A stretch of DNA of 45,266 bases from Candidatus Aminicenantes bacterium (GTDB lineage: Bacteria; Acidobacteriota; Aminicenantia; Aminicenantales; JAFGBC01), in the NCBI GenBank assembly GCA_022867325.1, contig JALHUR010000146.1, positions 1 to 45,266 on the forward strand, read 5' to 3'. Every line of letters starts with the position of its first letter. Positions within the stretch are counted from its first letter, which is position 1. The position numbers were made by a program, and so were the translations under genes. Below the pieces are notes generated by a model, which saw only the letters and a list, made by a program, of their open reading frames with translations, was not told the DNA's origin and made no database searches. Below are positions 11,856-35,241 of this stretch, piece by piece.

Positions 11856-11872
11856 CGCGACCAGGAATTAAG

Positions 11873-12880: not shown

Positions 12881-12881
12881 G

Positions 12882-13628: not shown

Positions 13629-13691
13629 AGAAGTCCCGCGGGGTTCTCCTAACCGGAGTCCCGGAATTTAGATTTAGAGGAGGAGTGGACA

Positions 13692-13934: not shown

Positions 13935-13953
13935 GACTTTCGTTCACTATTCG

Positions 13954-15231: not shown

Positions 15232-15234
15232 AAA

Positions 15235-16017: not shown

Positions 16018-16029
16018 GAGGAGCCGGCC

Positions 16030-17007
16030 ATGATACTCGTTTTCCTGGAAATCCGCGAAGGCAAGATCAAGAAGAGCTCCCTGGAAGTATTGAGCGAAGG
16101 CGCGCGGCGCGCCGGCGAGATGAACGCGGCCCTGGCCGCGGCCGCCGTCGGGCCGTTCGACCGCGCCCTGGCGGCCGAGGTCTTCGGATTGGGCGCCCGG
16201 ACTCTCTATCATCTGGATGGCCCGGCCCTCGAGAAGTATTCCTCGCAGGGATTCGCCCTGGCCTTGGCCGGCCTGGCGGCCGAGGTCAAGCCCAAGGCCG
16301 TTTGGATGGCCGCCTCGGCCCTGGGAAGGGACTTGGCCCCGCGACTGGCCGCCAAGCTCAAGGCCGGCCTGGCTTCGGACTGCACCAAGGTCGCCGTCGC
16401 CGGCGGCCGGCTCGAATACACCCGGCCCATCTTCGCCGGGAAGGCGCTGATGACCCTCGCCCTCCAGGGCGATCCCGGGCTGGCGACGCTGCGGCCGAAC
16501 GTTTTCGCGCTCGGCGAAGCCAAACCCGCCCAGGGCGAGGTCGTCAAGAAGACGGCGGCCGTGGCCGAGGGCCAAATCAAGGCCCGCGTCGAGGAGATCC
16601 AGAAGGAGCAGGGCGCGGCCCTCGACGTGACCGAGGCCGAGATCATCGTCTCGGGAGGCCGCGGTCTCAAGGCGGCCGAAAACTTCGGGATTCTGCGGGA
16701 GCTGGCCGCCATCCTGCCCCGGGCCGCGGTCGGGGCCTCGCGCTCGGCCGTCGATTCGGGTTGGATCGACCACCAGCATCAGGTCGGCCAGACCGGAAAG
16801 ACCGTGTCTCCCAACCTCTACATGGCCTTCGGCGTTTCGGGCGCCATCCAGCACCTGGCCGGGATGTCGGGCTCCAAGGTCATCGTCGCCGTCAACAAGG
16901 ATCCCGAAGCGCCCATCCTCAAGGTCGCGGATTTCGGGATCGTGGGCGATCTGTTCGAGGTCATCCCTCCCCTGAAGGACGAGCTCAAAAAAGCCCTGTC
17001 GGAATAG
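16030..17007 (+). CDS. etfA: Electron transfer flavoprotein, alpha subunit
   Basis: 325 aa with the C-terminal FAD-binding block [39 protein letters not shown]. Confidence 0.9.
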
Positions 17008-17019
17008 ATCCGGCAGCGC
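16988..17019 (+). repeat. Left copy of the 32-bp direct repeat bracketing the island (attL-like); covers the etfA 3' end
   Basis: aaaaagccctgtcggaAtagatccggcagcgc. It is identical to 30074-30105 except for one position (17004 a vs 30090 c). It comprises the last 6 codons of etfA, the stop and 12 nt downstream. Confidence 0.85.
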
Positions 17020-17029
17020 GCTTACGCCC

Positions 17030-17137
17030 GGCGTCATCGCGGCTATCCGGACATTCGGGGACAGGATTAATTTTCATCCCCGCCTCCACTACCTGGTGAC
17101 CGAGGGCGGAGTGGACGCGGCGGCCGAGGGGAATTGA
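17030..17137 (+). pseudogene. Remnant of an IS91/ISCR-family (HUH, Y2) transposase gene
   Basis: The frame reads ..PGVIAAIRTFGDRINFHPRLHYLVTEGGVDAAAEGN with the stop at 17135-17137. From memory of the family, this resembles the TFG..L.F.PHxH.L...GG block that holds the HUH motif. Only about 35 codons remain, with no start and no Tyr motifs. Confidence 0.4.
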
Positions 17138-17247
17138 CACCGCCATGCGGCCGGCGATATAATTCCGTCATGATCAGGGGGAGAGATTCGTCGCTCATAG
17201 TGAGAATTCAGCCCGCACGGAAAAAGGAAAATCCTATAATCCAAGAG

Positions 17248-17403
17248 GAGGTGTATCTGAAGGAATACGAAAGCGTATTGGATTGCAGAGTCAGTTTGCG
17301 GGAGTACATCGATTTTTACAATCAAGAAAGGGAGCACCAATCCCTTGATTACCGCACTCCTGCGAAGGTTCATTTGGGTCAACTTGCTTTAAGGGCGGGT
17401 TGA
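17248..17403 (+). pseudogene. C-terminal fragment of an IS3-family (rve/DDE) transposase
   Basis: EVYLKEYESVLDCRVSLREYIDFYNQEREHQSLDYRTPAKV carries the YN..R.H.SL.Y.TP tail signature found downstream of the DDE core. The catalytic core is absent, and the N-terminal 38 codons of the track ORF look like unrelated read-through. Confidence 0.6.
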
Positions 17404-17495
17404 ATGATCAAAATGGAGTCCACCTGTTTTGCGTCAATAAATGTTCTGGACAAACCAGACCATTATATTTTGCCCAAGTTTCGAGCGAGCATTTT

Positions 17496-17575
17496 GCCTA
17501 ACGTTTCCGGTGTTTGTGAAGTTGCCCGAAGGGCAATTTGGGGAAGCGTAGCTTCCCACAAACACCGTGTTAGAT
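17496..17575 (+). other. Integron attC-like recombination site 1 (80 nt)
   Basis: R'' GCCTAAC (17496-17502, fits RYYYAAC); 5-nt spacer; outer stem cggtgtttgtg (17508-17518) pairing with cacaaacaccg (17557-17567). Inner hairpins are ttgccc-gaa-gggcaa and gggaagc-gta-gcttccc. One t follows, then R' GTTAGAT (17569-17575, fits GTTRRRY). The architecture matches site 2, with compensatory stem changes. Confidence 0.6.
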
Positions 17576-17622
17576 GAAGTTGCTGCCGATTTTCTTTTTT
17601 TAACTCCCCTCTATCAAACATG

Positions 17623-18390
17623 CTAACGCTCTCCTAAAAATGACTTTCTGACCTCGTCATTTTTAAGAAGATTTATTGCTATATCTTCAAAAGCGATTTC
17701 GCCTATTTTAAATACATACCCTCTATTTGCGTACTCTAAAGCCACTCTGGCATTCTGTTCCACAAGCAGAATAGTTGTTCCATCTATGTTAATCTCCTTT
17801 ATCTTTTCAAATACAGTGTCTATATAATTCGGAGAAAGCCCCAGAGATGGTTCATCCAATAGAAGCAGTTTTGGTTTTAGCATCAGGGCTTTGCCAATAG
17901 CAAGCATCTGCTGTTCACCACTGCTTAATGTTCCTGCCCTTTGTTTTTGCCTCTCTTTAAGGATAGGGAATATGCTGAATACCTTCTCTATTAGTTGTTT
18001 CACATCAGTCTTCGGTTGTTGGTTTCTTTTCCCCAGCACTGATAACTTAACACTGGAAACTGTATACGCACCCATTTCCAGATTCTCTAAAACGGTCATT
18101 GAAGTGAAGACCCGTCTACCCTCTGGCACCAGACAAAGTCCTTTCTCAACCAACTGATAAGGCTGTTTGCCATTTATATTTTCTCCTCTAAATAAGACCT
18201 CTCCTGATTTAGGTTTTACCAAGCCACAAATTGCCTTTAGAGCGGTAGTCTTGCCAGCACCGTTTGGACCTATCATTGCCACAATTTCTCCCTCATTTAT
18301 ATTGAGAGAGATATCATCCAGAGCAAGGACAGTATCGTAATATGCTGTTAAGTTTCTTACCTCAAGAAGCACTTTCACGCCTCCTGCCAA
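17623..18390 (-). CDS. livF: Branched-chain amino acid-type ABC transporter, ATP-binding protein (LivF type)
   Basis: 255 aa. Walker [10 protein letters not shown], signature LSSGEQQML, Walker B LLLLDEPS. The substrate is not inferable. Confidence 0.88.
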
Positions 18391-19144
18391 GATATGCTTC
18401 TATAACTTTTTCATTTTTAATTACCACTTCTGGATGACCTTCTGCAATCTTTTGACCATAGTTCAATACAATGATATTATCAGAAATATTTGTTACTACC
18501 TTCATATCGTGCTCAATAAAAAGAATCGTTTTGCCTTTATCTTTTAATTTCTTAAGCACATCAAGTATCTTGACCCTCATATTAGGGAAAACACCTGCCG
18601 TTGGTTCATCCAATAAAAAGAGTTCGGCTCCCGTTGCCAGGGCTCGGGCTAATTCAAGCAATCGTCTCTGTCCATGAGATAAATTCTGTGCAAGTTCGCC
18701 TTTTTTATCTGTAAGACCTACCAATTCAAGGTATTCTAAAGACTTCTCTCTATTTCTCTGCTCCTCGTCTTTCATAACCGTTGCTTGAAGAAGTGCGGAT
18801 ATAAGACCTTCACCTTTATCATATTTGGTTGCGAGCAATATATTCTCCATAACCGTAATCTGCGGGAAAAGCCGGATATTCTGAAACGTCCGTGAGATAC
18901 CTAATCTGGCTATCTTGTAAGGTGGCAGATTAATAATCCTTTTATTCCTAAAATGTATATCTCCAGATTGAGCATTGCAGAATCCAGAGATTATATTAAA
19001 AACTGTTGTTTTCCCCGCACCATTAGGACCTACCAAGGCGTTTATAGTGGCTGGTTCAATAAAGAAGTTCAGGTTATCTACTGCAACAAGTCCGTCAAAT
19101 TCCTTAGAAAGATTTTTAACTTCTAATAACATGTCGCCACTCAT
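18362..19144 (-). CDS. livG: Branched-chain amino acid-type ABC transporter, ATP-binding protein (LivG type)
   Basis: 260 aa. Walker [25 protein letters not shown], Walker [11 protein letters not shown]. Confidence 0.88.
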
Positions 19145-20010
19145 TTGAACCGATACACCCCCATTATCCCTTGAGGTCTTTTAAACATAAGGACTACAAG
19201 CAACAATCCATATATCATCTGTCTCATTGGCGCTGCAATTGAAGAAGGCATTCCCAAAAACCTCAGAAGTTCAGGGAAAACGACCAGAATTACCGCTCCC
19301 ACCATAGAGCCTGATATACTTCCCATTCCTCCAAAGATAACCATAAGAAGGATGGTAATGGATTCCATTACATTGAAACTTGATGGGTCAATAAAGGTTA
19401 TGTAATGGGCATAAAGACTTCCAGCAATACCGGCAAAGAATGCCCCGATAATGAAAACTAATAGTTTGTATTTAATTGTATTCTTCCCTAATGCCTGTGA
19501 GGCAATTTCATCTTCCCGGATAGACCTCAATATTCTGCCAAACGGAGAATTTACTATCCTGTTAATAATAAAAATAGTAATTACCACAAAAACCAAAACC
19601 AGTAATAGATAAGACCATATTTCTGACAATTGAAAACCGGCAATTGAAAACCCTGGTATTCCAGGCAGTCCCATTGGTCCTCTTGTAAGGGATACCCAGT
19701 TCTTGGCAATGGAATACACAATAACCCCCAAACCGAATGTTGCCAGAGCAAGATAATCCCCTTTTAACCGCACTGCTGGATAGCCTATTACAATGCCTGA
19801 GAATGCTGCCACACAGGCTCCAATTAACAATCCTATCCAGGGAGATAAACCTATATTCAATGCGAGCAGGCTTGAGGTATATGCCCCAATACAAGAAAAG
19901 GCTGCATGACCCAGTGTTGGTAGTCCAGTATAGCCCACAATGAGATTAAGGCTCAAGGCAAGGATTATGTATATCCCAGCAATAACAAGTATATGTAAAA
20001 GATATTCCAT
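19141..20010 (-). CDS. livM: ABC transporter permease (LivM type)
   Basis: 289 aa polytopic membrane protein with the LivM-like block [11 protein letters not shown]. It overlaps livG by 4 nt. Confidence 0.85.
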
Positions 20011-20014
20011 GTCT

Positions 20015-20911
20015 TTAAATTGTCTCCTTTTCTGTCTTAGTACCCAGGAAACCCGATGGTCTTATCAAAAGAAAAATTATGAGAATTACAAAAGCAATAC
20101 AATCCTTCCATCCGGCTGATATCTTCCAGATACCAAGATTCTCAGCTAATCCCAGAAAGAATCCACCGAGCACTGCACCTGGAATACTGCCGATACCACC
20201 AATAATAGAGGCAATAATTCCCTTTAAGAGAGCACTAAATCCCATAGTGGGCTCAATATTGGTCTCAAAAGAAATAAGTATCCCAGCAGCACCAGCTAAT
20301 GCAGAGCCTATTGCAAATGAAGTTAAAATTATCTTTTCTGGATTTATGCCAACAATATTTGCTGCTATGGGATCATCAGACACAGCCCTCATTGCTTTGC
20401 CTAGTTTTGCTTTCTGGATAAAGAGCCAGAGCAGTATCATAAGAATGATCGAGACTGCTAAAATCAAAATCTGGATATCAGTAATCACTGCACCAAGAAA
20501 ATGATGTCCTTCCCTGACAGGTCCTGTTCTTATTGTAAGGATCTGTGCCCCATAGATAAGTTGAATTAGATTTTGAAGGAAGATAAAGACACCAAACGAT
20601 GCGAGGAGAAAAATCATGTTAGATGCATTTTGTCGGCGAAGGGGATAATAGACAAATCTATCTATCCCAATGCCGAGGAGGGCAGAAAGGGCAATGGATA
20701 AAAAAAAGGAAAGTGGGAAATTGAGGTGTAATAAGAAAATTAGGGTATAAGCAAAATATGCCCCTGCTGTATAGACCACACCATGAGCGAAGTGAAAGAA
20801 CTTTACTGTGCGGTAGATAACGGTGAAGCCTATAGCAATAAGGGCATAGATACTGCCTGCAATTATTCCGTTTAGTATGAGTTGCTCAAGCAATTTATTC
20901 CTCCCTAGCAA
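20015..20911 (-). CDS. livH: ABC transporter permease (LivH type)
   Basis: Polytopic membrane protein with N-terminus LEQLILNGIIAGSIYALIAIG. The probable true start is the TTG at 20893, preceded by GGGAGG and a 6-nt spacer. The track start at 20911 is also a TTG. Confidence 0.85.
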   Translation of the reverse strand: MLGRNKLLEQLILNGIIAGSIYALIAIGFTVIYRTVKFFHFAHGVVYTAGAYFAYTLIFLLHLNFPLSFFLSIALSALLGIGIDRFVYYPLRRQNASNMIFLLASFGVFIFLQNLIQLIYGAQILTIRTGPVREGHHFLGAVITDIQILILAVSIILMILLWLFIQKAKLGKAMRAVSDDPIAANIVGINPEKIILTSFAIGSALAGAAGILISFETNIEPTMGFSALLKGIIASIIGGIGSIPGAVLGGFFLGLAENLGIWKISAGWKDCIAFVILIIFLLIRPSGFLGTKTEKETI

Positions 20912-20996
20912 ACTAATAACTTATAAATTGATGACTAATACGAGTCATTGCAATGAGACCACAGATGATACCAGGAATAACACCATCAAAGACAAG

Positions 20997-22742
20997 TCAG
21001 TTGGCAACGTCTCGATACACTATTCGGATTTGCCCCCGCTCATGCAATTCAAAGAAACTCTTGATTGGTAGAATATGGAATTTTTGTGTTTCAAGAGCTT
21101 GCGGCATTTTCAAATTCTTTTCCATCTCATCTGTCGCGCTTTTAAGTAATCTAGAGTATAATGAATAGCTATCCACGCGTCGCTTGGCTTGTCCTCCGAA
21201 ACGAACATTGAAAACATCGTCATAATAGAAGGTATAAAAGGGTTCTTTCTTATCCCAATCTACCTCGTAATTAAACCACTTTTCATACTGCAATATATTT
21301 ATTCCCTGCTTTGCGCAATTAAAAATGATCCAGTTACTCGAAAGTTCCTCTATTTTAATCTCAACAGGGTTACCGCGCCCAGCTAACATTGAGAGATAGC
21401 TGCACAGTTCTTTAGTGTCACTTGGAACAAAGACGGTATACACTTTGTAATTATCAGGTGTATCAATAAAATTATGCATAAGAAAATTAACAACTTCATT
21501 GTAATCCTTTTCTTGATTAGTTTTTCTATCTTTCCATCTCTTTCCTATGATTTCTATTATGTTTTTGTTACCCTCCCATTTCTGGTCAGCAGATATATAA
21601 ATATACCTATGAACCTTTAGCCTACTATCTCCCGATTGACGTTCTTTAGCTTGTTTTTTCAATTCATTAGCCCAGTCTAAAATACTATCGCTCGTAATTA
21701 AGCTCAACTCAGACCACATTGTTAGCGGCCAATTTGCTATTATCTCATCTGAAACTGGCAAAATCTCGCGTGAAAAGATTCTGAATTCTCTATCCATTTC
21801 GCTTTTTATTTCCTCAAATCTGTGAGTACCCATCTTTAAAGGCTCAACGAACCATAATTCGGAATGCGTAGCTGAAAAGCTATATCCACTGTCCCTTATT
21901 GATTCTACAACTTTTTGAGACAAAGATGGCAAGATAGTAGAGAAATATTCAATCTTTTTTGCATAATCTGGATGCATTAAAATGCAATTGTCTAACAACT
22001 CCTCCCGAAATTTCTTTATTTCATTTTGTCTTAACCTCCCTTCGGTCGGGATGATAATGCATTTCGACATAAACGAGAAGATGATTTTGTTAGAAAAAAC
22101 AATAATGGGGTCAAATATCTGAGGGAGATGATGTATGTAGAAATAGGAATTACTGCATTGGCGAATCATACGGGCTAACTCCTCTTTTCGAGGAAAGGGC
22201 AGTTCTGTATCAATAACGAGCAAGGGTATATTTTCATAGCCCGACTTTGTACGCAGGAGAGATTCTAGAGAAAAGGGAGTACCATTTTCTTTAAAACTGC
22301 CCAATGCAATCACAGGCTCAGCAGGCTTTTGACCAGCAAATGCTTTCTTCAGATTATCTTCGATAGTGCCTAAGTCTTCAAAAGCTATGATAATAAAGTT
22401 CTCGCCGCTTGTCTTATAATCACGGAGATTTCTTTCGGCAGCTTCAGCCTTTTCTTTGTGTTCCTGCTCTCTCTTTAGAAACGCACGCCGTTCGCCTTCT
22501 AGAGAACTCCGTTCAAATTCCCATTTTCTTTTAAGTTTAAACCCTTTCCATAGCTTCACTAAAGCCCCAAGGGACAGGGACCACACTACCCCTACAATTA
22601 TTTGGGTCAGCAGAAGGCGGTCTTTCGCAAAGTCCGGGAAAAATATCCCAGATATTATCTCGAACAAAACACCGATTGTGGCAAGTATCCACATAATCCA
22701 CGTCTGTCGTGAAGGCTTTTGGTTCGCATAGTCGTTGTTCAT
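20997..22742 (-). CDS. Membrane-anchored protein of unknown function (581 aa)
   Basis: The ATG at 22742 is preceded by GGAGG and a 5-nt spacer (the track start at 22748 is GTG). It has two N-terminal hydrophobic helices (WIMWILATIGVLFEIISGIFF; IIVGVVWSLSLGALV), a charged coiled-coil-like stretch, then about 450 aa with no motif I recognise. Confidence 0.7.
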   Translation of the reverse strand: MNNDYANQKPSRQTWIMWILATIGVLFEIISGIFFPDFAKDRLLLTQIIVGVVWSLSLGALVKLWKGFKLKRKWEFERSSLEGERRAFLKREQEHKEKAEAAERNLRDYKTSGENFIIIAFEDLGTIEDNLKKAFAGQKPAEPVIALGSFKENGTPFSLESLLRTKSGYENIPLLVIDTELPFPRKEELARMIRQCSNSYFYIHHLPQIFDPIIVFSNKIIFSFMSKCIIIPTEGRLRQNEIKKFREELLDNCILMHPDYAKKIEYFSTILPSLSQKVVESIRDSGYSFSATHSELWFVEPLKMGTHRFEEIKSEMDREFRIFSREILPVSDEIIANWPLTMWSELSLITSDSILDWANELKKQAKERQSGDSRLKVHRYIYISADQKWEGNKNIIEIIGKRWKDRKTNQEKDYNEVVNFLMHNFIDTPDNYKVYTVFVPSDTKELCSYLSMLAGRGNPVEIKIEELSSNWIIFNCAKQGINILQYEKWFNYEVDWDKKEPFYTFYYDDVFNVRFGGQAKRRVDSYSLYSRLLKSATDEMEKNLKMPQALETQKFHILPIKSFFELHERGQIRIVYRDVAN

Positions 22743-22776
22743 ACACACCTCCTCTTAATCACAAAAGTATATTCGT

Positions 22777-23832
22777 CTATGACCCCACAATCCCTTCGTT
22801 TCGCTTCGGAAAGCACAATCCGGCCCACCGAAGCTCCCCATACTTTTTATTCTTTGTTTCGCTGCACGCTCGCCAAAGCTCTGCCAACGAAAAATCTCGA
22901 ACATTCCCTACCGTCTCATCCGCTTCACAGACCTTTACATTTCCTATGTCATCCATATACATGCCTGTTCGCGAAATATCGCAGGGCAACCCTCCCGGAA
23001 AATCTGAAGGTTCTGACAATCTAATTCCTTTTCGCTCCCTTAATTCAATGAGTTTTTGTGTTAGAGATTGGATCTCACAAGGCTTTGGCGAATAATTGGC
23101 TCTTGCTATAGGGTTCTTCATTTTGCCGAGGGGCATTAGGGGACATACAAGAGGATAGATGTTGTGATCCAGTGCGAAGTCAAAAACAGAAGGGACTTCG
23201 TCATAAGTTTCTTTTAGTAGAACGATAGCAAAACCCAACCTCGATGGAAAATGTTTGTTGAAACCACATGAAAGCAAACGTTCTAGCGCTCTATCTCTTA
23301 AGATAGAATATCCTTTGCGCTGTACGACCTCATCCTTCTCATACTTTATCATTACTGTTACGCCAATATCGTATAACTTTTGCACAATTTCATCGCAGGA
23401 GAGTCGATGAGCCTTTTGTGCGAGTTCCTCCGAACCTAATGTGTCCCCACAAGTAAAAAGAATCGGTATCATTCCTAACTTCCGAATCGTGGCCAGAAGG
23501 AATAGTATGTCCTTTCTAAGCATCGGTTCACCCTCTCCCAGGATCTTAATACTCTTCCCCCCCAACGCTGCGAACTCTTCAAAAACACGAAGTACTTCCT
23601 GCTGTCTTAATTTGCCTTTCTTGTTCACATACAGAAAACCACAGTAGGTGCAATTATTCAAGCAACGACCGGGTAAAGCGCAATCCATTGTCAAAGGAGT
23701 ATTTTTGCGGCGGGCTTCTAGGATTTCATCTTTTGGAAATGTCCCGCCGTTGTATCCGAAAACTGTCTGCGGAAGTTGGATTGCAGTTTTACTTCCCCGA
23801 GCAGTACAAATGCGGTTGGCCTTTTCACTCAT
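22777..23832 (-). CDS. Radical SAM enzyme with SPASM/twitch-like C-terminal region
   Basis: CX3CX2C motif CLNNCTYC; GEGEPML (GGE-like SAM motif); C-terminal GNVKVCEADETVGNVRDFSLAELW. The probable start is the ATG at 23832, which overlaps the upstream stop (ATGAGTGA). The track start at 23907 would overlap the binding-protein gene by 83 nt. Confidence 0.8.
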   Translation of the reverse strand: MSEKANRICTARGSKTAIQLPQTVFGYNGGTFPKDEILEARRKNTPLTMDCALPGRCLNNCTYCGFLYVNKKGKLRQQEVLRVFEEFAALGGKSIKILGEGEPMLRKDILFLLATIRKLGMIPILFTCGDTLGSEELAQKAHRLSCDEIVQKLYDIGVTVMIKYEKDEVVQRKGYSILRDRALERLLSCGFNKHFPSRLGFAIVLLKETYDEVPSVFDFALDHNIYPLVCPLMPLGKMKNPIARANYSPKPCEIQSLTQKLIELRERKGIRLSEPSDFPGGLPCDISRTGMYMDDIGNVKVCEADETVGNVRDFSLAELWRACSETKNKKYGELRWAGLCFPKRNEGIVGS

Positions 23833-24964
23833 ACAGCACAAGCTTCCCTTGCTCATTGAAAGTGTAAAAGTAGAAGCGTCTCCCAGTTGTCTGCCCATTC
23901 TGGTCAAACTTGATCTCTCCTGTCACCCCTTGGACGACAAATCCTGGATCACGCAGAGCTTGGATGATCTTTTCGTGGTCTAACGATTTTGCTCTATTTA
24001 TACCCTCGGCTAGCACAAGAATTGCATCGTAACCATAGGGAGCGAAGGGTGGAATGGGACCATAGCGCGCCTTATATTTTTGTACGAATTCTTTTGCAGT
24101 TGGGACAGCCTCCCAAGGAGGTGATAGGAAGCTGATATAAACATTTCTACAATTTGTCCCTGCTAGTTTTTTGAAATGCTCGTCAAAACAGCCGTCTCCA
24201 AAAACAAATACTATTTTCAGCCCCAGTTCCTCTGCCTGTCTCACTAGTATTGATCCCTCGGGCATCATACCGCCATAAAATATTGCTTCTGGTTTATAGC
24301 TCTTTGCCATTAACAACACACCACGATAATCTCTTTCTCCAGGGATCAACGCCTCAGAAAGCAGAACATTACCTCCCAAAGATTCAAAATGTTCCTTAAC
24401 TTGCGTGGCTATTCCCTTGCCATAGGATGCGTTATCATGAATTATCACTATCGAGTGATCCTTGAGACGATTAAATATAAATTCCGCCCCTGAAATTCCC
24501 TGCATATTATCGGTCGGGGCAAATCTAAAAACGTTCTCAAAGCCCTGCTGGGTAAGAATGGGGTTGGTTGGAGATGTAGCAACGTAGGGCATCTTGCGGC
24601 TGTGGAAGATTTTTGAGGCAGGGATTGCGTTGCCGCTATTGGGATATCCTATTACACCTATAATGTCGTTTCGGGATGTAAACAGATGAGCAATGTTTAC
24701 TGCGTCCGCAGGCTGGGCCTTGTCATCCTGCGCTAAAAGAGTAACTTTCTTCCCAAGAAGTCCACCCTTATTGTTAATATCCTCGACGGCCAACTCTGCG
24801 GCTCTCCTTTGAGGTTCCCCATAGACCGCACCTTCTCCAGTCAACGGCAAAATAACCCCAATTTTTATCTCCTTCGGCTCATTCTTTGTCTGAGTGACAA
24901 TGAGCAGGATGGCTAAAGCCACAACTACCACGATACCGATTCCAATCCAAATGTTTCGTTTCAT
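23825..24964 (-). CDS. ABC transporter substrate-binding protein (LivK/Peripla_BP_6 type), N-terminal membrane anchor
   Basis: 379 aa. N-terminal hydrophobic helix IWIGIGIVVVVALAILLIV with no lipobox Cys, then KIGVILPLTGEGAVYGEPQRRAAELAVEDINNKGGLLGKKV. AGGAGG lies 9 nt upstream of the ATG. Confidence 0.85.
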   Translation of the reverse strand: MKRNIWIGIGIVVVVALAILLIVTQTKNEPKEIKIGVILPLTGEGAVYGEPQRRAAELAVEDINNKGGLLGKKVTLLAQDDKAQPADAVNIAHLFTSRNDIIGVIGYPNSGNAIPASKIFHSRKMPYVATSPTNPILTQQGFENVFRFAPTDNMQGISGAEFIFNRLKDHSIVIIHDNASYGKGIATQVKEHFESLGGNVLLSEALIPGERDYRGVLLMAKSYKPEAIFYGGMMPEGSILVRQAEELGLKIVFVFGDGCFDEHFKKLAGTNCRNVYISFLSPPWEAVPTAKEFVQKYKARYGPIPPFAPYGYDAILVLAEGINRAKSLDHEKIIQALRDPGFVVQGVTGEIKFDQNGQTTGRRFYFYTFNEQGKLVLYE

Positions 24965-24992
24965 AATTCACTACCTCCTTTCCTCAAAAATT

Positions 24993-25021
24993 TTTCTAGC
25001 CTCTCGTTGTCCCTTTGTCAA
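24993..25021 (-). promoter_or_regulatory. Sigma70-type promoter of the binding-protein/rSAM/ABC operon
   Basis: On the minus strand: TTGACA (25021-25016), a 17-nt spacer, then TAGAAA (24998-24993). This lies about 30 nt upstream of the ATG at 24964. Confidence 0.45.
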
Positions 25022-25070
25022 TTTTTTTATTTATCCCTCTCTCTTCTAAACCAATATCGCCAGCAATTTC

Positions 25071-25149
25071 ATCTAACGGTCTCGGGCTATACGAAGTCGG
25101 CGTAAGCCGATTTTGGCGAACGAAGTGAGCCGTATAGCCCGTGTTAGGC
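25071..25149 (+). other. Integron attC-like recombination site 2 (79 nt)
   Basis: R'' ATCTAAC (25071-25077); 5-nt spacer; outer stem cgggctatacg (25083-25093) pairing with cgtatagcccg (25131-25141). The inner hairpin is tcggc-gtaa-gccga, and a second, imperfect hairpin is ggcgaac-gaa-gtgagcc. One t follows, then R' GTTAGGC (25143-25149). R'' is the exact complement of the TTAGAT that follows the G of site 1. Confidence 0.62.
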
Positions 25150-25195
25150 GATGGGGCGACACACGCAAATGAATCATATGGTTTATTCATCCCAG

Positions 25196-26176
25196 TCATT
25201 TCATCTCCTTTTCTTTCAAAATTTCTTTTTCTAAATCCCGGAGAGATATTTTTTGGCCGTTTTCGTATATAAAAGTGTATCCGTTTTTATTTTCATCTTC
25301 TACCATGGTTAATTTATAAAACATATCTCTACTCAACTCGTATAATTTCTTAAAATCTGCTATAGTTTTGTATGCACCACACCAACATTCTGTTGAGGTT
25401 CCTAAAGAATGTAGAAGAGTTTTTGGTATGCCGTTATTATTGATATAGGCTATTACATCATCATCTGGCCAATAAAAAATTGGACTGACAGAGAGACACT
25501 TGAAACTTGGGTGATACCATATCGGCATGTATTGTTTTCTTACATTAGATTCCGCTGCCCTTATTCCATCAAAAACAACTTTCTGCTCTTTTATGCTATC
25601 TAAATATTCCTTAATAGGCTTGATTTTTAATTCTCTGCAACACCATCTATACTTAAAACTTGGGATACCCCATTCTTTTGCTAAAGTAAAGTAATCTACT
25701 TTTGGTCTCACTATTTTGAGATTAACTTCTAAATATTTGCAGACTTTTTTTACGTATTTTGTATTTTCAGGGAGCCCGGCTGTTGTATCCACATAAATCG
25801 CAGTTAAATCATTACCATCTTTTTTTGCAAAGTCTTTTAAATAAACTAGAGTAGCAAGACTATCCTTTCCTCCGCTAAATAGAATAAATGATTTTCTGCT
25901 TTTTAAAAGCCTTTTAATATCACTCTCCAATATAGAGACTTTATCGCGTATATTATTGGATTGTTCTTGATCAAGCTCACATACTTCTCTTACTTTCTCC
26001 CGTTTAATATGCAGAATGTAAATAGGTTTCAATGTCGGGCCTTTAATCCACCTAGTAATAATCAAACCTTTTTCTTTGCATTTGGGGCAATTAACGTTAA
26101 GACTTTTCAAATTAATTCCCGCAAAGGCTTCTTCAATTGGTGCCCACCACTTATTATTTGAATTAGAGCTATCCAT
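25196..26176 (-). CDS. PAPS reductase-family PP-loop ATP pyrophosphatase (DndC/IbrA-like) with an N-terminal Cys-containing extension
   Basis: 326 aa. PP-loop FILFSGGKDS; family signature RWCCRELKIKP; C-terminal ECWCGAY; N-terminal CPKCKEKG. The start overlaps the upstream gene by 8 nt. Confidence 0.8.
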   Translation of the reverse strand: MDSSNSNNKWWAPIEEAFAGINLKSLNVNCPKCKEKGLIITRWIKGPTLKPIYILHIKREKVREVCELDQEQSNNIRDKVSILESDIKRLLKSRKSFILFSGGKDSLATLVYLKDFAKKDGNDLTAIYVDTTAGLPENTKYVKKVCKYLEVNLKIVRPKVDYFTLAKEWGIPSFKYRWCCRELKIKPIKEYLDSIKEQKVVFDGIRAAESNVRKQYMPIWYHPSFKCLSVSPIFYWPDDDVIAYINNNGIPKTLLHSLGTSTECWCGAYKTIADFKKLYELSRDMFYKLTMVEDENKNGYTFIYENGQKISLRDLEKEILKEKEMK

Positions 26177-27125
26177 TTATTGCCTCCACAGTTCCTATCA
26201 ACCTTAATCCTCTTTCTCTGAAGTCTGTAAAAGGAACCGGAGAAAAGATTTTTTCACCCTCATATGTTGGTGAAAGTTGAGAAGCTAAACTCTGTTGAAT
26301 TAAACAGTCCTCTATTGAATCAACAGAAAGTTTCTCGTCAATTACTTTGAGATATTTATTGACTGTTTGATGCCGTTGTAATTTCTGTAATATCTCGGAT
26401 GTGCCTACATGTGTTCTATTGGTCTTTCGCATCGCCTCGTAAAATTTTACACCAAGGAAAGCACTTTTTTCAATTCGTAGTACTTCTTTTTGCCAGTATA
26501 TGACTACGTTGTCAACAGCTCTTTGAAAATTATCTAAAGAAGATGAGTTCCTGATACACTCCGAGATCTGATTTAATATTTTTCGAAGTTCTAAGTGCCT
26601 CATGGTGAATGCTAAAATAGAAGTTTCTAAAATTCTTGAGATATCTGAAATTTCAATTGGAATGAGTTTATATTCTTCTCTAGGATTACTTTTAATGGAT
26701 CTAAATGTATCTCTATGCATTGTGTTGCATATTAATAAGGCAAAAGTATCTCTTGGATTTATCTGTGACTGAGAGCAAAAATCTTCACAGTGTCTAATGG
26801 ACTGTGCAAATTCTTGTGACCATTGATTAGCTCCAGTTTTTAATGTTGCTTCTATTGTTAGGCAGAAGCCATAGCAATAAGCAATTGTGTCTGGTCCGCC
26901 CGCTGGGGCTCTAGAAATAGTAGGATTGATGTTGCCGCGCCAAGTTACACGATGAGAAATGGTAGGCTGGTCGTTATCAGTGCTGTAGAATGGTAAATGA
27001 AGGATATAAGCAAATGCCTCAGCAATTAGTTTCTCAAAATATGTTGATCGCAACGATTGCTGAAATTGCGCTAGATATTGGTCAAGGTTTTTTAAGGTTC
27101 TTAAAATTGTCCGGGAGGATGCCAT
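26169..27125 (-). CDS. Hypothetical protein (318 aa), possible PD-(D/E)xK-like nuclease fold
   Basis: FEKLIAEAF helix, then GGPDTIAYCYGFCLTIEATLKTGANQWSQE. This is a PD...E.T.K arrangement resembling, but not matching, the canonical D-(D/E)xK. No family recognised. Confidence 0.65.
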   Translation of the reverse strand: MASSRTILRTLKNLDQYLAQFQQSLRSTYFEKLIAEAFAYILHLPFYSTDNDQPTISHRVTWRGNINPTISRAPAGGPDTIAYCYGFCLTIEATLKTGANQWSQEFAQSIRHCEDFCSQSQINPRDTFALLICNTMHRDTFRSIKSNPREEYKLIPIEISDISRILETSILAFTMRHLELRKILNQISECIRNSSSLDNFQRAVDNVVIYWQKEVLRIEKSAFLGVKFYEAMRKTNRTHVGTSEILQKLQRHQTVNKYLKVIDEKLSVDSIEDCLIQQSLASQLSPTYEGEKIFSPVPFTDFRERGLRLIGTVEAING

Positions 27126-27135
27126 AACTACACCT

Positions 27136-27702
27136 TTATCTCTCCTCTTTTTTTGCTTTCTGTGTTAACCAATCCGCAACTATACCTTTTACCAGCTCTG
27201 CTGGCTTAATTTTCAAGGTTCTGGCATGTTTTATGATTGCTCGATACATTTCGTCATCAAAATCCATCACAAAAATATGTAGTCCCTTCGGCTTTGCTTC
27301 TAAAACTACTTTCTTTGCCTCTTTAATAGGTACATTAGCGCCCTTAACGAGCCGTTTTATATCCCTCACATCTTTTGATAATGAATTTATAAATGCCTCA
27401 GCTGCAGCAATCTGTTTGGATGGATCTTTAAGCACTGAAATCTCTCTTATAATATCAATACCATCTATTCTTCTATCCGAAACTAACTTCTGTATTTCCT
27501 CGGGTAGCTTTAAAGTTGTCAAAAATTCTCTTATCATTTCAGTAGAAAGTCCTACCTTCTCTGCTACGACTTTTTGTGAACCGTATAATCTAACAAGATA
27601 GTCAAAAGCGTTAGCAACAGTAATCAAATCATCTGGTCTTTTTTTTCTTTTTGTATTGGCAAACACTATAGCTAAGGCGGCTTCTTCATTTAGTTTTCTC
27701 AT
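27136..27702 (-). CDS. HTH protein, paralog of the ParB-like protein without the ParB N-domain; RHH-like C-terminus
   Basis: 188 aa. VAEKVGLSTEMIREFLTTLKLPEEIQKLVSDRRI aligns by eye with VAEHLGVSPQTVRNYLGYAAVPEPIKKMVDEGKL of the upstream gene. The C-terminus HIFVMDFDDEMYRAIIKHARTLKIKPAELVKGIVADWL parallels RVTIDLTPRVADALEQACQKYKSDAEDITMEALEDWL. There is an ATGA start/stop overlap with the upstream gene. Confidence 0.7.
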   Translation of the reverse strand: MRKLNEEAALAIVFANTKRKKRPDDLITVANAFDYLVRLYGSQKVVAEKVGLSTEMIREFLTTLKLPEEIQKLVSDRRIDGIDIIREISVLKDPSKQIAAAEAFINSLSKDVRDIKRLVKGANVPIKEAKKVVLEAKPKGLHIFVMDFDDEMYRAIIKHARTLKIKPAELVKGIVADWLTQKAKKEER

Positions 27703-28490
27703 TTAATAAACCCCCTTCGCTTAAGCCAATCTTCAAGAGCTTCCATTGTTATATCTTCAGCGTCGCTTTTGTATTTTTGACATGCTTGTTCTAGAGCATC
27801 AGCAACCCTTGGTGTTAAATCAATTGTTACTCTCTTGAACTTCTGCTCCTTTACAGTTTTTACAATCTCGGCTGGTGTTTTTTGAGGATTCTCTCTTTCC
27901 ACATCAATTATTTTTCTTCTGTCTTCACTGCGAGGGGTTTCCTTAATTTTCTCTGCGATTTTCACAGCTTTTTTTTCATCTGAGATGTTTTTTGCTATTC
28001 TGGTAGCGGTAGAAGCACTTAGTTTCCCTTCGTCTACCATTTTTTTAATAGGTTCTGGTACCGCAGCATATCCTAGATAATTTCTTACAGTTTGGGGTGA
28101 TACACCAAGATGTTCTGCCACTTTATTAACAGAGCTAAACTTGTTCAACAACTCTGTAGCAACTTGCATTTTATCACGATATTCAAGTTCGAGGCGGTGA
28201 ATATTCTCGCTAAAAGATTTGATAGTAGCATCTGTTTCATCCTTTACAATAGTTATAAGGGCAGGAATCTCTCTCAATCCCAGTTTTTTGCAGGCAAGAA
28301 GGCGTCGCTGTCCAATTAATAGTTCGTATCTGTCTTCCTTTTGGAAAACCACAACTGGCTGCTGAACACCTATTTCTCTGATACTGTTAGCAAGTTCATC
28401 AATGCCCTCCTCAAGATTAGATTTTCGGACATTTGAAACGCTTATATCTATTTTATCCAATGGTAGGTATTCAAATTTTAATTTTTTCAT
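27699..28490 (-). CDS. ParB/Srx N-terminal domain protein with HTH and RHH-like C-terminus (IbrB/DndB-like position)
   Basis: The start is taken at ATG 28490 (MKKLKFEYLPLDKI), with GGAGAGG 11 nt upstream; the track start is 28532. ParB N-domain blocks are LPLDKIDISVSNVRK, IDELANSIREIGVQQPVVV and the arginine motif LLIGQRRLLACKKLG. The HTH is VAEHLGVSPQTVRNYL. Confidence 0.8.
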   Translation of the reverse strand: MKKLKFEYLPLDKIDISVSNVRKSNLEEGIDELANSIREIGVQQPVVVFQKEDRYELLIGQRRLLACKKLGLREIPALITIVKDETDATIKSFSENIHRLELEYRDKMQVATELLNKFSSVNKVAEHLGVSPQTVRNYLGYAAVPEPIKKMVDEGKLSASTATRIAKNISDEKKAVKIAEKIKETPRSEDRRKIIDVERENPQKTPAEIVKTVKEQKFKRVTIDLTPRVADALEQACQKYKSDAEDITMEALEDWLKRRGFIK

Positions 28491-28534
28491 TTTTATCAAT
28501 CCTCTCCATATGTCTACCTTTCGCCTAAACACTA

Positions 28535-28563
28535 AGTATACGACGTATGGCGTATATTTTCAA
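28535..28563 (-). promoter_or_regulatory. Sigma70-type promoter of the ParB/PAPS-reductase operon, with a palindrome in the spacer
   Basis: On the minus strand: TTGAAA (28563-28558), a 17-nt spacer, then TATACT (28540-28535). On the plus strand, aagtatacg-acgtatgg-cgtatattt (28534-28559) forms an 8/9 inverted repeat that overlaps the -10 element and the spacer. Confidence 0.45.
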
Positions 28564-28748
28564 TTTATCCCAACTTCGTTATTTGTACCAGTTAGCATGG
28601 TTATCATGACACTATGGAGCCTGTTGCGTGATTCGCATTTGAAGCGCGTCTGACATGGATTTTTATAGGCTACGCCGGAGTGCCGAGAGTTCTCGGCGAG
28701 CGTTTCGAGTAGAAATCATTTTCCACGATTCTTGCGATTGTTGAAGCG

Positions 28749-29096
28749 ATGCTTGAAAAGTACGATGATGACAATGAGCTAAAAGCATGCGTTTATAAAT
28801 CGCTCACGGGCATGCTGGAGTTTCAATCGACTCACCCTGAAGAGAATCAGTACGAGATCATTTGGCTGATCTACTTCATCAAGAGTGTTTTACGTAAGCA
28901 AATTAGCCACCGTAATAATTATTCCAACGATCTTGTAAGGACCGTTGCGACTGAGAATCGCGAGTTCTTTAGAGCTTTCAGTGACGCCAAGTTCTTTAAT
29001 ATGCCGACTTTACCTGTATCGCGAAATCATCTGCTCCAGCATTTGGCCATCTTTTGGGCGAAGCAAGCAGACGAAGCAATCAATGGTCCAGAATAG
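28749..29096 (+). CDS. Hypothetical protein (115 aa), cassette-like orphan
   Basis: Plus-strand ORF with plausible composition, immediately followed by an attC-like imperfect palindrome. No family recognised. It could be a gene fragment. Confidence 0.4.
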   Translation: MLEKYDDDNELKACVYKSLTGMLEFQSTHPEENQYEIIWLIYFIKSVLRKQISHRNNYSNDLVRTVATENREFFRAFSDAKFFNMPTLPVSRNHLLQHLAIFWAKQADEAINGPE

Positions 29097-29184
29097 TCTG
29101 AACGAATTTGAATGATATACGAATGGTCGGGCGTATAATAAATCGCTGGAGCGGACTCGGCCAGAGCGCGCAAATCCGTTGACA
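29097..29184 (+). other. Degenerate attC-like element
   Basis: It starts right after the stop codon of the 115-aa ORF. The 13-nt blocks ctgaacgaatttg (29098-29110) and caaatccgttgac (29171-29183) are a 10/13 inverted repeat. They contain an R''-like TCTGAAC and an R'-like GTTGACA. Internally, tatacgaa...cgta resembles the left half of attC-like site 2. It fits the RYYYAAC/GTTRRRY consensus only partly. Confidence 0.3.
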
Positions 29185-29235
29185 ATAGTATTGCTGGGCC
29201 GATCAGCTCGCGGTCGTTTGGCACAAGGAGGTGAC

Positions 29236-29997
29236 ATGAAAAAACCGTGGGTTACAATAAGTATGGTAATGCTCATAATATGTGGTACGGCGTGGGGGCA
29301 ACAGACAAACCTATACGACGACCGCCCCAAGATCACGGTGAACGGCGAAGCGGTTGTGAATGTGGAGCCGGACAAGATCGTAATTAACTTTGGGATCGAA
29401 ACCTGGGATACCGACATCGTTGTCGCCAAGCAAAAGAACAACGAGATCCTGAAGAAGGCTAAAGCGGCGATGAGGGAATCGGGCGTACCAGAAAGGGAGA
29501 TCCAGACGGATTACCTGTCCATAGAGCCGCGATGGAAGAGCGAATACCGCAAGGAAGATTTCCTCGGGTACTTTGTCCGCAATACTGTTGTGGTGACGCT
29601 CACAGATGCGGCCAAAGTCGAAAAGCTGGTCACAGAGGTTCTTCAGGCCGGAGTCAACTACATTCACGGTATTGATTTTCAGACAACCGAGTTCAAGAAA
29701 TACCGTGAGCAAGCGCGCGAACTGGCGCTCAAGGCCGCCAAGGAGAAGGCAGACAAGATGGCGGCTGTCCTCGGCCAGTCCGTCGGCGCGCCTATCCAGA
29801 TCAACGAGAGCCATGGAGGGTCGCCCTGGTGGTACTGGTCAAGTTGGTCCGGATGGGGATACGGCCGAAATCAGAGCATGTCCCAAAATGTCGTTCAGAA
29901 TGTGCAAGGCAGCTCAGGCGAGATCAGCGAGACCATTTCCCTCGGCAAGATATCAATCCGGGCGGCTGTTACAGTGACTTTTGAACTCAAGAAATGA
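29236..29997 (+). CDS. SIMPL/DUF541 domain periplasmic protein (BP26/Omp28-like)
   Basis: The ATG at 29236 is preceded by AGGAGG. Signal peptide MKKPWVTISMVMLIICGTAWG, then ITVNGEAVVNVEPDKIVINFGIE... and the C-terminal strand ISIRAAVTVTFEL typical of the family. The track start at 29179 is a TTG inside the preceding attC-like element. Confidence 0.7.
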   Translation: MKKPWVTISMVMLIICGTAWGQQTNLYDDRPKITVNGEAVVNVEPDKIVINFGIETWDTDIVVAKQKNNEILKKAKAAMRESGVPEREIQTDYLSIEPRWKSEYRKEDFLGYFVRNTVVVTLTDAAKVEKLVTEVLQAGVNYIHGIDFQTTEFKKYREQARELALKAAKEKADKMAAVLGQSVGAPIQINESHGGSPWWYWSSWSGWGYGRNQSMSQNVVQNVQGSSGEISETISLGKISIRAAVTVTFELKK

Positions 29998-30049
29998 TTA
30001 TCGTCCCAAGGAGTGTAGACGATATGGATCAATATAATCATTGTTAGGC
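29980..30049 (+). other. attC-like element at the right end of the island
   Basis: It ends in a canonical core, GTTAGGC (30043-30049), preceded by a single t as in sites 1 and 2. An 8-bp stem atgattat (29994-30001) pairs with ataatcat (30034-30041), and an inner hairpin is cgtc...gacg. The R'' is weak (TTTGAAC, 29980-29986). The element overlaps the SIMPL stop codon. Confidence 0.35.
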
Positions 30050-30073
30050 GTACCAACAAAGGGGCGCCCATGG

Positions 30074-30105
30074 AAAAAGCCCTGTCGGACTAGATCCGGC
30101 AGCGC
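30074..30105 (+). repeat. Right copy of the 32-bp direct repeat bracketing the island (attR-like)
   Basis: aaaaagccctgtcggaCtagatccggcagcgc, 31/32 identical to 16988-17019. Weaker gapped similarity continues for about 18 nt (..ta.gc..gg.gtcatc). Confidence 0.85.
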
Positions 30106-30199
30106 TATAAGCGGGTCATCCTCGATCGACCTCGTCTCCCATCTCGCCGAGCACCGGAAGTTTCTCCGGATGGGATAGATTAAGCCGGGGACGCGGGAA

Positions 30200-32687: not shown

Positions 32688-32693
32688 GTCCGC

Positions 32694-33971: not shown

Positions 33972-34008
33972 GCTCTTCGTCTTCGTCCTTTCCGGCGTCG
34001 TCGGATCG

Positions 34009-35232: not shown

Positions 35233-35241
35233 GTCGGCATT

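Follow-up and report, generated by a model that had tools for sequence, protein, structure and literature searches.

Does a direct repeat that restores the end of a gene beside a block of foreign DNA mark the attachment site of a site-specific recombinase, or can it be the scar of recombination of another kind? The question is raised by a contig stretch of 45,266 nt (the window, whose positions serve as coordinates throughout) from one strain of an uncultivated Aminicenantes species. In this window, a sequence of 32 nt (the 32-mer) at the 3′ end of etfA, the gene for the electron transfer flavoprotein alpha subunit, recurs on the far side of a long AT-rich block. An earlier interpretation made without database searches (the sequence-only reading) had taken this block to be foreign DNA that entered in a site-specific or homology-guided manner and is bracketed by an att-like duplication. 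We find that, in the window strain, ∼13.05 kb of foreign DNA (17020–30073) has replaced most of a DUF6498 gene, and that this DNA is a degraded genomic island. That foreign DNA has been inserted downstream of an intact etfA gene is, in our view, almost beyond doubt. We further consider it moderately probable that the duplicated 32-mer is the scar of a host segment that was duplicated by non-site-specific recombination and then trimmed to a hairpin, and that it is not the crossover core of a recombinase.

Allelic States of the etfA–Polyferredoxin Junction

The host genes that meet at this junction are etfA (16030–17007, plus strand), an intact open reading frame (ORF) of 325 amino acids with homologues that carry PF01012/PF00766 and with synteny to relatives, and, convergent with it, the gene for a MauM/NapG-family 4Fe-4S polyferredoxin of 531 amino acids (30200–31795, minus strand), recognized as an ORF and by synteny. 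Conspecific contigs, which are 97–99% identical to the window at the nucleotide level, were reached via the cluster members of the window's own EtfA and polyferredoxin, for which no exact protein match was on record, and a scan of the genome collection, where the relatives among the matches listed are at most 63% identical, was used for synteny.

The search for an empty site in related genomes that had been suggested as a check did turn up unoccupied alleles, at the same 97–99% identity. In L082, L085 (34 kb), L086 (42 kb), and L089 (12 kb), window position 17021 is fused directly to 30184, a single 32-mer is present, and the stop codons of etfA and the polyferredoxin gene are 28 nt apart. Taken together with the intact etfA gene of the window, these alleles bear out the proposal that the foreign DNA was inserted in a manner that preserves etfA. 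In L090 (complete), L087, and L088, a gene for a 222-amino-acid DUF6498 membrane protein (Pfam match with E = 2.3e-58) lies between etfA and polyferredoxin on the etfA strand, and the spacing between the stop codons is 737 nt. The precursor spacing of about 110 bp that had been predicted thus corresponds to neither arrangement.

DUF6498 is also found at the same position in the sister species L091, and because it occupies the same place in the conspecific strains and in this sister species, it is most simply taken to be ancestral at the locus. The "empty" strains are then better read as having lost DUF6498 by deletion across a short (G/T)CCGGG repeat, of which one copy stands just past the 32-mer and the other just ahead of the polyferredoxin end. 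The converse possibility, that DUF6498 is a small insertion with a 6-bp GCCGGG target duplication, was dropped because the gene is at the same site in L091. The 13-kb block itself is absent from seven conspecific contigs (L082 and L085–L090), and L081, a further contig, holds a different insert.

At larger evolutionary distances, etfA and polyferredoxin are convergent neighbors in the family-level relatives L001 and L002 (∼60% EtfA identity), and among genus-level relatives (80–85% identity) the two genes overlap in L084 and have one small gene between them in L083. The duplication of the etfA end was not found in seven related loci (L001–L004, L083, L084, and L091). As a separate observation, etfA and polyferredoxin are kept apart by host-like, high-GC genes over 3.7 kb at L003 7530–11200 and over 9.4 kb at L004 10980–20380, and these genes encode sulfatases, MinD/ParA-like 4Fe-4S proteins, NifB/DUF134-like proteins, and a Fur-family regulator. 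These two loci belong to more distant Aminicenantes lineages without an etfA-end repeat, such that the junction is also variable over long time scales. They were considered as evidence for an insertion hotspot, and dropped from that role since the intervening genes are host-like in composition and no repeats are present.

The Duplicated etfA Terminus

The 32-mer, AAAAAGCCCTGTCGGA[A/C]TAGATCCGGCAGCGC, is found at 16988–17019 and again at 30074–30105, with 31 of the 32 positions identical between the copies, precisely as the sequence-only reading had described it. When up to three mismatches are allowed, a search of the window returns these two copies only (0.00 expected, from 100 dinucleotide-preserving shuffles), and no other strong repeat appears when the whole window is compared with itself by BLAST. 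The left copy comprises the last 17 nt of the etfA coding sequence (..KKALSE), the stop codon at 17005–17007, and a further 12 nt. The right copy is an orphan etfA 3′ end that reads ..KALSD-stop, and no EtfA homology was found upstream of it, in agreement with the earlier assignment of the left copy as the true gene end and of the right copy as the duplicate. Among conspecific strains, the 32-mer is polymorphic at five positions. The right copy is identical at 32 of 32 positions to the etfA ends of L081, L086, and L090, and the A at 17004 in the left copy is a single-nucleotide polymorphism (SNP) private to the window, at which the right copy has the population consensus C. An exact 30-mer scan of the JGI metagenome collection, in which sampling is limited, recovered the etfA end of L081 only. 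The 32-mer is a single-copy chromosomal sequence and no dispersed repeat.

Structurally, the 32-mer consists of an A5 run and two arms of 11 nt each, which flank a 5-nt loop and are complementary at 9 of 11 positions. The minus strand is predicted to fold into 9 bp with two internal mismatches and a 3–5-nt loop, followed by U6 (−14.1 kcal/mol, z ∼ −2.7); a simple terminator scanner missed the full stem owing to the mismatches. These features point to an intrinsic (rho-independent) terminator-like hairpin on the polyferredoxin strand, which probably ends polyferredoxin transcription, and the 32-mer fits a predicted terminator common to both convergent genes, from which we infer its function. 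We note that an ORF of 1017 amino acids on the minus strand (13984–17037), antisense to a fabF-like gene, etfB, and etfA, overlaps the left 32-mer; this ORF is a spurious high-GC artifact and no gene.

Several readings of the 32-mer as a known kind of target were considered and rejected. Targeting of a tRNA gene was ruled out, as neither tRNA nor tmRNA genes are present in the window. We also rejected the idea that the 32-mer is an integron attC or a secondary site, because inspection reveals no GTT core on either of its strands, and because gene order and orientation are unlike those of a cassette array. Finally, to our knowledge, the 32-mer does not resemble known dif sites, and a reading in terms of dif and the Xer-exploiting (IMEX) elements that are loaded there was set aside.

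Boundaries of the Insert

The sequence-only reading placed the repeat at the borders of the island, which would make the inserted DNA start at 17020, and neither point withstands comparison with other strains. On the left side, L081, a sister-strain contig from another sample, Ga0315285, is 98% identical by BLAST over the etfA end and window positions 17010–17239, and the window and L081 diverge only at 17239/17240, such that the true start is at 17240. The common segment (17010–17239, from BLAST and alignment) contains an internal fragment of an IS91-family (Y2/HUH) transposase gene (about 17017–17137, plus strand), the equivalent L081 ORF of which matches PF04986 Y2_Tnp (E 1e-6) and NF033538. 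This fragment covers profile positions 132–166 of 356 (NF033538), that is, ∼40 codons from the middle of the gene. It is followed by a sigma-70-type promoter with a 12/12 match (TTGACA, 18 nt, TATAAT; 17134–17163, plus strand), found by a promoter scan and pointing into the island. At the left edge of the window-specific AT-rich DNA lies a C-terminal fragment of an rve-type (DDE) transposase gene (17240–17403, plus strand; Pfam rve_3 1.9e-7 and rve_2 2.2e-5), of which the last ∼50 codons remain. Positions 17020–17239 are therefore older mobile-element debris common to another strain, and the window-specific DNA is 17240–30073.

Downstream of its 32-mer, L081 has native GCCGGG, then a 5′ piece of DUF6498, the IS91-family fragment, ∼100 nt with the promoter, an integron-integrase-like pseudogene, and a LivK-like gene. 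GCCGGG and ∼60 nt of native DNA thus stand between the L081 32-mer and any element DNA. Compared to L081, a stretch of 62 nt is absent from the window, deleted between CCGGCAGCGC, with which the 32-mer ends, and CCGGGAGCGC, with which the IS91-family fragment starts, and this deletion is bounded by a direct repeat that matches at 9 of 10 positions.

Two features of L081 may be described here in their own right. The integron-integrase-like pseudogene (L081 3250–3645, minus strand) matches TIGR02249 with 175 bits over fragments, includes the IntI-specific ALDRKYPNA..WQWVFP segment, has an N-terminal truncation and an internal deletion, and lies ∼330 nt from the left 32-mer. The LivK-like binding protein (L081 1666–2817) is only 27% identical to the LivK of the island, and the cargo of the window and that of L081 are therefore unrelated.

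On the right side, the 32-mer is preceded by a spacer, x, of 76 nt (29998–30073), which has no homology to etfA or to any related locus compared, and the right end of which (..GGGGCGCCCATGG) abuts the A-run of the right 32-mer. What follows the right copy is a decayed remnant of the DUF6498 gene (30105–30178, plus strand), as is apparent from the alignment to L090: CTATAAGCGG corresponds to L090 741–750, GTCAT to L090 829–833, and the last 59 nt (..IDLVSHLAEHRKFLRMG-stop) to L090 848–906. Window positions 30073–30230 are thus collinear with L090 in the order 32-mer, deletion, CTATAAGCGG, deletion, GTCAT, last 59 nt of DUF6498, and polyferredoxin, and 35 nt of the remnant are 100% identical to the end of contig L087. 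Alignments show homology to all conspecific strains resuming over 30184–30199 (GCCGGGGACGCGGGAA..). The point at which the window rejoins the rest of the strains, 30184 (GCCGGGGACGCGGG..), is 78 nt past the right 32-mer, which places the boundary between insert and host at 30183/30184. The weaker similarity that had been thought to continue for some 18 nt past the repeat is no homology, as the left copy runs into the IS91-family transposase fragment and the right copy into the DUF6498 remnant.

At the first joint on the right side, the 32-mer end GGCAGCGC and the sequence just before L090 741, GGCAGCCC, agree at 16 of 18 nt, and the right 32-mer is fused to the DUF6498 remnants through GGCAGC(G/C)C microhomology. 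To judge from the sequence, this joint is the signature of a ∼535-nt deletion between short direct repeats within a once-contiguous segment that comprised the etfA end and DUF6498.

Origin of the Duplication

Had the insert entered by a single crossover within a 32-bp att core, element DNA should begin directly after the left copy and host DNA directly after the right one, and neither is observed. The order of parts that is actually present is etfA, 32-mer, (host 5′ DUF6498), IS91-family fragment, foreign DNA, x, 32-mer, (host 3′ DUF6498), and polyferredoxin. Such a crossover is not a simple fit, because host DNA follows the left copy, as seen in L081, and a deletion derivative of a host gene follows the right copy. 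In contrast, this order of parts is expected if the joining of the foreign DNA duplicated a host segment whose start lies 20 nt ahead of the etfA stop codon. Of the two modes of entry that had been offered in the sequence-only reading, homology-guided insertion is therefore closer to the data, and a site-specific att core is not, as the order of parts does not suit a simple attL/attR pair.

A plausible sequence of events would start from an ancestral layout in which etfA is followed by DUF6498 and then by the convergent polyferredoxin gene, with the hairpin straddling the etfA stop codon. Incoming DNA from an L081-like donor would pair with the recipient in or upstream of etfA, through a homologous crossover, and the far end of the donor DNA would be joined illegitimately at the A-run just upstream of the recipient etfA terminus, in a process of homology-facilitated illegitimate recombination. 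The recipient etfA terminus, already a DUF6498 deletion variant, would be kept as an orphan. Such a route would require only a single novel joint, ..GGGGCGCCCATGG to AAAAAGCC.., at the A-run. Microhomology deletions anchored at the 3′ base of the hairpin would then trim both copies to the same end point, with a loss of 62 nt on the left and of ∼535 nt on the right. Alternatively, a circle carrying host DNA (possibly from an IS91-like element) could have entered by a Campbell-type event, or a tandem duplication could have been followed by deletion. Homology-facilitated illegitimate recombination is the simplest and most economical of these routes, which are indistinguishable on present data. 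Every one of them differs from an att model in that the identity between the copies would originally have reached, or could have reached, past 32 nt, and would have been cut back by deletions.

Five rearrangement end points fall in or beside the 32-nt hairpin, four of them deletions and one a duplication joint. Four independent microhomology deletions account for the end points at the 3′ base of the hairpin, all within ∼16 nt: one removed DUF6498 from the "empty" strains, and the others took ∼95 nt from L081, 62 nt from the left side of the window, and ∼535 nt at the right copy. The duplication joint lies at the 5′ base. This clustering suggests a structure-associated hotspot, or selection that keeps the terminator, or both.

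Composition, Mobility, and Population Signal

A drop in G+C from roughly 70% to roughly 33% had been noted between the copies of the repeat. The drop itself is confirmed, with windowed values that are less extreme in the flanks (0.61–0.68), range from 0.33 to 0.45 over ∼17.5–29 kb, and reach ∼0.5 in the last kb. When the island as a whole is set against the host, G+C is 0.33–0.53 compared to 0.63–0.68. The G+C content at third codon positions (GC3) is 0.83–0.89 in host genes, compared to 0.28–0.64 in island genes, and the latter fall into classes of 0.28–0.30, 0.32–0.39, 0.43–0.44, 0.51, and 0.64. Since there are several such classes, the block is a mosaic, and no single coherent element. The host genes in question comprise fatty-acid synthesis genes, etfB, and etfA on the left, and polyferredoxin, DUF362, and amidase genes on the right, and the best matches of the flanking genes are Candidatus Aminicenantes assemblies.

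The statement that no integrase or recombinase gene is present holds for intact genes: no Phage_integrase or serine-recombinase domain was found in island ORFs of at least 85 amino acids. Remnants do exist, however, in the form of the IS91-family fragment (∼17017–17137) and the rve fragment (17240–17403). With no intact integrase or recombinase found, we agree that the element appears immobilized. The island would thus be immobile by itself, and would now spread only via homologous recombination in its flanks.

The flanks bear on this point through their divergence from other strains, which we expressed as SNP density, that is, window-specific differences per kb relative to the two long "empty" contigs L085 and L086. 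On the left, this density is 2.2/kb at 9471–10818, 3.7/kb at 11084–13000, 5.0/kb at 13001–15000, 9.7/kb at 15001–16029, and 18.1/kb within etfA (16030–17021), and thus climbs approximately eight-fold toward the island. On the right, it is 13.7/kb at 30184–31795, 16.5/kb at 31796–33971, 9.9/kb at 33972–36000, and 9.2/kb at 36001–38938, and stays raised for at least 9 kb. The etfA gene alone has 13 window-private SNPs (16052–17004) against a background of 2.3/kb over the preceding 10 kb (Poisson p ∼1.5e-6). On both sides, then, the haplotype to which the island is linked is a diverged one, as would fit its import or its long-term maintenance through homologous recombination in the flanks. Since divergence is also raised in the right flank, the whole block may have been imported ready-assembled.

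Two further observations concern intergenic DNA in these flanks. The intergenic region 10819–11083 varies in length and sequence among conspecific strains (265 nt in the window and 104 nt in L085), and a weak 60-nt repeat (78% identity) joins the intergenic regions 35489–35548 and 38972–39029, which may represent a small dispersed intergenic element.

Alternative Explanations

Several observations weigh against the 32-mer duplication being the scar of a host segment duplicated by non-site-specific recombination, and against the events proposed above. The donor configuration is present in no contig, and the joint ..CCCATGG/AAAAAGCC is not demonstrably illegitimate, with the A-run as the only possible microhomology. 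The near-perfect dyad symmetry of the 32-mer (11-nt arms and a 5–7-nt spacer) is also typical of a simple tyrosine-recombinase site, and an integron-integrase-like pseudogene lies ∼330 nt from the left copy in L081. Two independent deletions that end at the same 8–10 nt are a coincidence that needs a hairpin hotspot or selection for the terminator. The right junction (30074–30183) and the 17239/17240 junction are each present in the window contig only. Finally, the SNP gradient derives from few strains, and old linked polymorphism could also explain it, instead of recent import.

Taking these points into account, the alternative that survives best, although we consider it unlikely, is that a tyrosine-recombinase element integrated into a 32-bp attB over the etfA stop codon, in which case the two copies would be attL and attR, and the integrase would have been lost or supplied in trans, for example by the integron-integrase-like gene of L081 or by a Xer-type enzyme of the host. 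In favor of this alternative, the direct repeat is as long as an att core typically is and restores a gene at its 3′ end, the arms of the 32-mer are complementary at 9 of 11 positions in a dyad, and the L081 pseudogene lies near the left copy. The single copy in the unoccupied strains would follow as well, but this is equally expected of a duplication scar. The positions of the copies are more difficult to reconcile with integration at an att site, as the right copy is off the host boundary and followed by DUF6498 remnants through a microhomology deletion, and in L081 there are 6 nt and then ∼60 nt of native DNA between the left copy and the first element DNA. Indeed, the order of parts is impossible from one crossover in the 32-mer unless the element already bore host flanks, in which case integration would have been by homology anyway. 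In addition, the window is without an intact recombinase, a second use of the site was not found in the related loci or in the metagenome 30-mer scan, and the island is a compositional mosaic of pseudogene fragments and no coherent element.

An IS91/ISCR-style capture appears less plausible still, and we regard it as improbable. Here, a Y2 rolling-circle element in DUF6498 would have mobilized adjacent DNA, including the etfA end, as a circle, and re-entry of this circle by homologous recombination would have duplicated host DNA. The complex class 1 integrons of ISCR1 have duplicated host DNA on either side of their cargo, and in the window, too, the cargo is flanked by a duplicated host segment. 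An IS91-family transposase fragment, common to L081, lies directly beside the left copy, and the L081 DUF6498 junction follows a CTTG tetranucleotide, the kind of target used by IS91. However, what survives of the transposase gene is ∼40 codons from its middle, no oriIS or terIS is recognizable, and the CTTG abuts the interior of the gene and no terminus of an element. Furthermore, in the self-BLAST of the window, neither the element nor the 220-nt segment shared with L081 occurs a second time.

Slightly less credible again, and in our opinion very improbable as an account of the present arrangement, is that the dyad-symmetric 32-mer serves both as the terminator hairpin of etfA and polyferredoxin and as a true site of recombination, on which a tyrosine recombinase of the host or of a neighbor would act in trans (for example, the integron-integrase-like enzyme of which L081 has the pseudogene), with the host remnants around the copies being later rearrangements. 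If this were true, DNA without an integrase would have been loaded at a terminator between convergent genes, much as IMEX elements are at dif.

The least tenable explanation, which we consider extremely unlikely, is an assembly artifact in which a low-GC block of another organism or a circular plasmid was threaded in at the 32-mer. It is true that the lineage is uncultivated and the contig was assembled from a metagenome, that G+C differs extremely between block and flanks, and that the junctions at 17239/17240 and 30073/30074 are found in the window contig alone. However, the copies differ at position 17, which leaves longest exact shared words of 16 and 15 nt, below usual assembly k-mers, and the contig returns to the locus that it left, with its orientation unchanged. 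Scars that make biological sense, and that no assembler would invent, mark both borders (the IS91-family fragment, also present in an independent contig from another sample, and the DUF6498 remnants with their microhomology deletions), and divergence climbs in either flank with proximity to the island, as expected of an insertion that is real and linked. The diverged haplotype on both sides, the one-base difference between copies, and the support of L081 for the left junction jointly argue against a chimeric assembly.

Cargo of the Island

The genes between the two copies are of accessory type, as had been proposed: a Liv transporter, a radical SAM enzyme, an operon of PAPS-reductase, ParB, and AlwI-like proteins, a reverse transcriptase fragment, and a SIMPL protein. 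The transporter portion comprises livF, livG, livM, and livH-like genes (17623–20911, minus strand) for the ATPases and permeases of a branched-chain-amino-acid-type ABC transporter (Pfam ABC_tran, BCA_ABC_TP_C, and BPD_transp_2), with G+C of 0.38–0.40 and GC3 of 0.32–0.36, and a LivK-like periplasmic substrate-binding protein (23825–24964, minus strand; Peripla_BP_6, 4.6e-62). The best relative of the latter is 74% identical, and the next full-length relatives are at most 40% identical (1.84 billion representatives). Between them lie genes for a 583-amino-acid protein (20997–22748, minus strand), for which no match was found in Pfam, NCBIfam, PADLOC, PHROGs, or PDB sequences, and for a radical SAM enzyme of 376 amino acids (22777–23907, minus strand; PF04055, 3e-13), the NCBIfam matches of which are weak and all far below cutoff. 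We note that these two genes (20997–23907, minus strand) are wedged between livK and livHMGF in what is apparently a single operon, which is unusual for a Liv-type locus.

The four-gene operon (25196–28532, minus strand) is tightly packed, has a G+C of 0.33–0.38, and encodes a ParB_N/helix-turn-helix (HTH) protein (27699–28532), a ParB-HTH protein (27136–27702), an AlwI-C-terminal-like endonuclease-domain protein (26169–27125), and a PAPS-reductase-family protein (25196–26176; PADLOC SspD 3.8e-22, BrxP 5.5e-18, and DndC 7e-10), all on the minus strand. The operon was characterized with Pfam, NCBIfam, PHROGs, and PADLOC, the last of which also gave REase_II at 2e-6. The NCBIfam DndC score of the PAPS-reductase-family protein is 27 bits, compared to a cutoff of 290. 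Searches of the ORFs neighboring the operon with Pfam, PADLOC, and NCBIfam gave no match to a cysteine desulfurase, a DndD/SspC-type ATPase, PglZ, or BrxC. On the basis of its predicted domains, the operon is a candidate for an unclassified DNA-modification/restriction module that would be no member of the Dnd, Ssp, or BREX families. Relatives of the PAPS-reductase and AlwI-like proteins that are ∼95–97% identical occur together on other metagenome contigs of 4.0–5.5 kb. Among plasmid and phage sequences, the PAPS reductase has only relatives of at most 34% identity, and none were found in viral contigs; the plasmid collection also contains no near-identical island DNA.

Toward the right end of the island lie the C-terminal fragment of a UG14-class defense-type reverse transcriptase (28749–29096, plus strand; PADLOC RT_UG14, 1.5e-12, profile positions 395–490 of 493) and the gene for a SIMPL/DUF541 protein of intermediate composition (29179–29997, plus strand; G+C 0.53, GC3 0.64; PF04402, 2.8e-46). 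With an orphan RT_UG14 fragment beside the ParB/PAPS-reductase operon, a cluster of defense genes may have decayed at this end of the island, and the operon itself may merit testing as a defense system.

Comparison with Known Systems

In one species, at least four allelic states exist at a single site (DUF6498 present, DUF6498 deleted, and two different fills of mobile DNA), which documents a core-gene junction that both gains and loses DNA in a phylum without cultured members. Where a direct repeat restores the end of a gene, it is usually read as an att site. In the present case, comparison with sister strains makes a recombination scar the likelier reading, and the att sites that pipelines for island prediction derive solely from repeats should be treated with corresponding caution. 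The cluster of end points at the hairpin would provide a small natural example of a structure-associated hotspot. Current understanding is not overturned by these observations, and the case will not surprise a specialist.

The closest known systems include the att-flanked islands, prophages, and integrative and conjugative elements at the 3′ ends of genes or tRNA genes. As in these, a strain-specific block of atypical composition lies beside the 3′ end of a conserved gene, a direct repeat of 32 bp restores the gene end, and the unoccupied allele has a single copy. In contrast to these, however, the repeats are off the boundaries between insert and host, with host DNA after the left copy (in L081) and host pseudogene remnants after the right copy, there is no intact integrase, the related loci and the metagenome scan gave no sign that the site is reused, and fragments of mixed composition make up a mosaic cargo. 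Of the properties that would identify a site-specific element, a single core in the unoccupied site was thus found, whereas repeats at the boundaries, an integrase within the element, and reuse of the core were not. The properties of a genomic island were found throughout, namely strain-specific presence, atypical composition, and remnants of mobility genes together with accessory cargo.

The capture of DNA by ISCR1/IS91 elements, as in complex class 1 integrons, is similar in that a remnant of an IS91-family transposase lies beside cargo flanked by a duplicated host segment, and dissimilar in that only an internal gene fragment is present here, no oriIS or terIS is recognizable, and the duplicated segment is now 32 nt long. 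For the cargo, the relevant comparison is with the phosphorothioation systems Dnd, Ssp, and BREX type 4. DndB is a ParB-superfamily protein (PMC12839542), and the operon at 25196–28532 likewise combines a PAPS-reductase-family ATP-pyrophosphatase with ParB-superfamily partners and a nuclease-domain protein. It differs from these systems in that it is without a cysteine desulfurase, a DndD/SspC-type ATPase, PglZ, and BrxC, its nuclease partner resembles only the C-terminal part of AlwI, and all scores are far below the family cutoffs.

A further process with which the arrangement of the locus can be compared, given the route we infer, is homology-facilitated illegitimate recombination, as described in Acinetobacter, Streptococcus pneumoniae, and Pseudomonas stutzeri (PMC5361080), with displaced "orphan" 3′ pieces having been proposed for Vibrio cholerae type VI secretion system and Rhs arrays (PMC5361080). 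The present case differs in that the orphan consists of 32 nt of the gene end and a decayed neighbor gene, and in that the process would be deduced here without an observed donor or event. The likenesses extend to both ends of the insert: a conserved upstream gene would serve as the homologous anchor, while the other end of the foreign DNA would be joined without homology, and the downstream piece of the recipient is displaced yet kept as an orphan. Joints of microhomology size, and a divergence of the flanks that climbs toward the insert, complete the resemblance.

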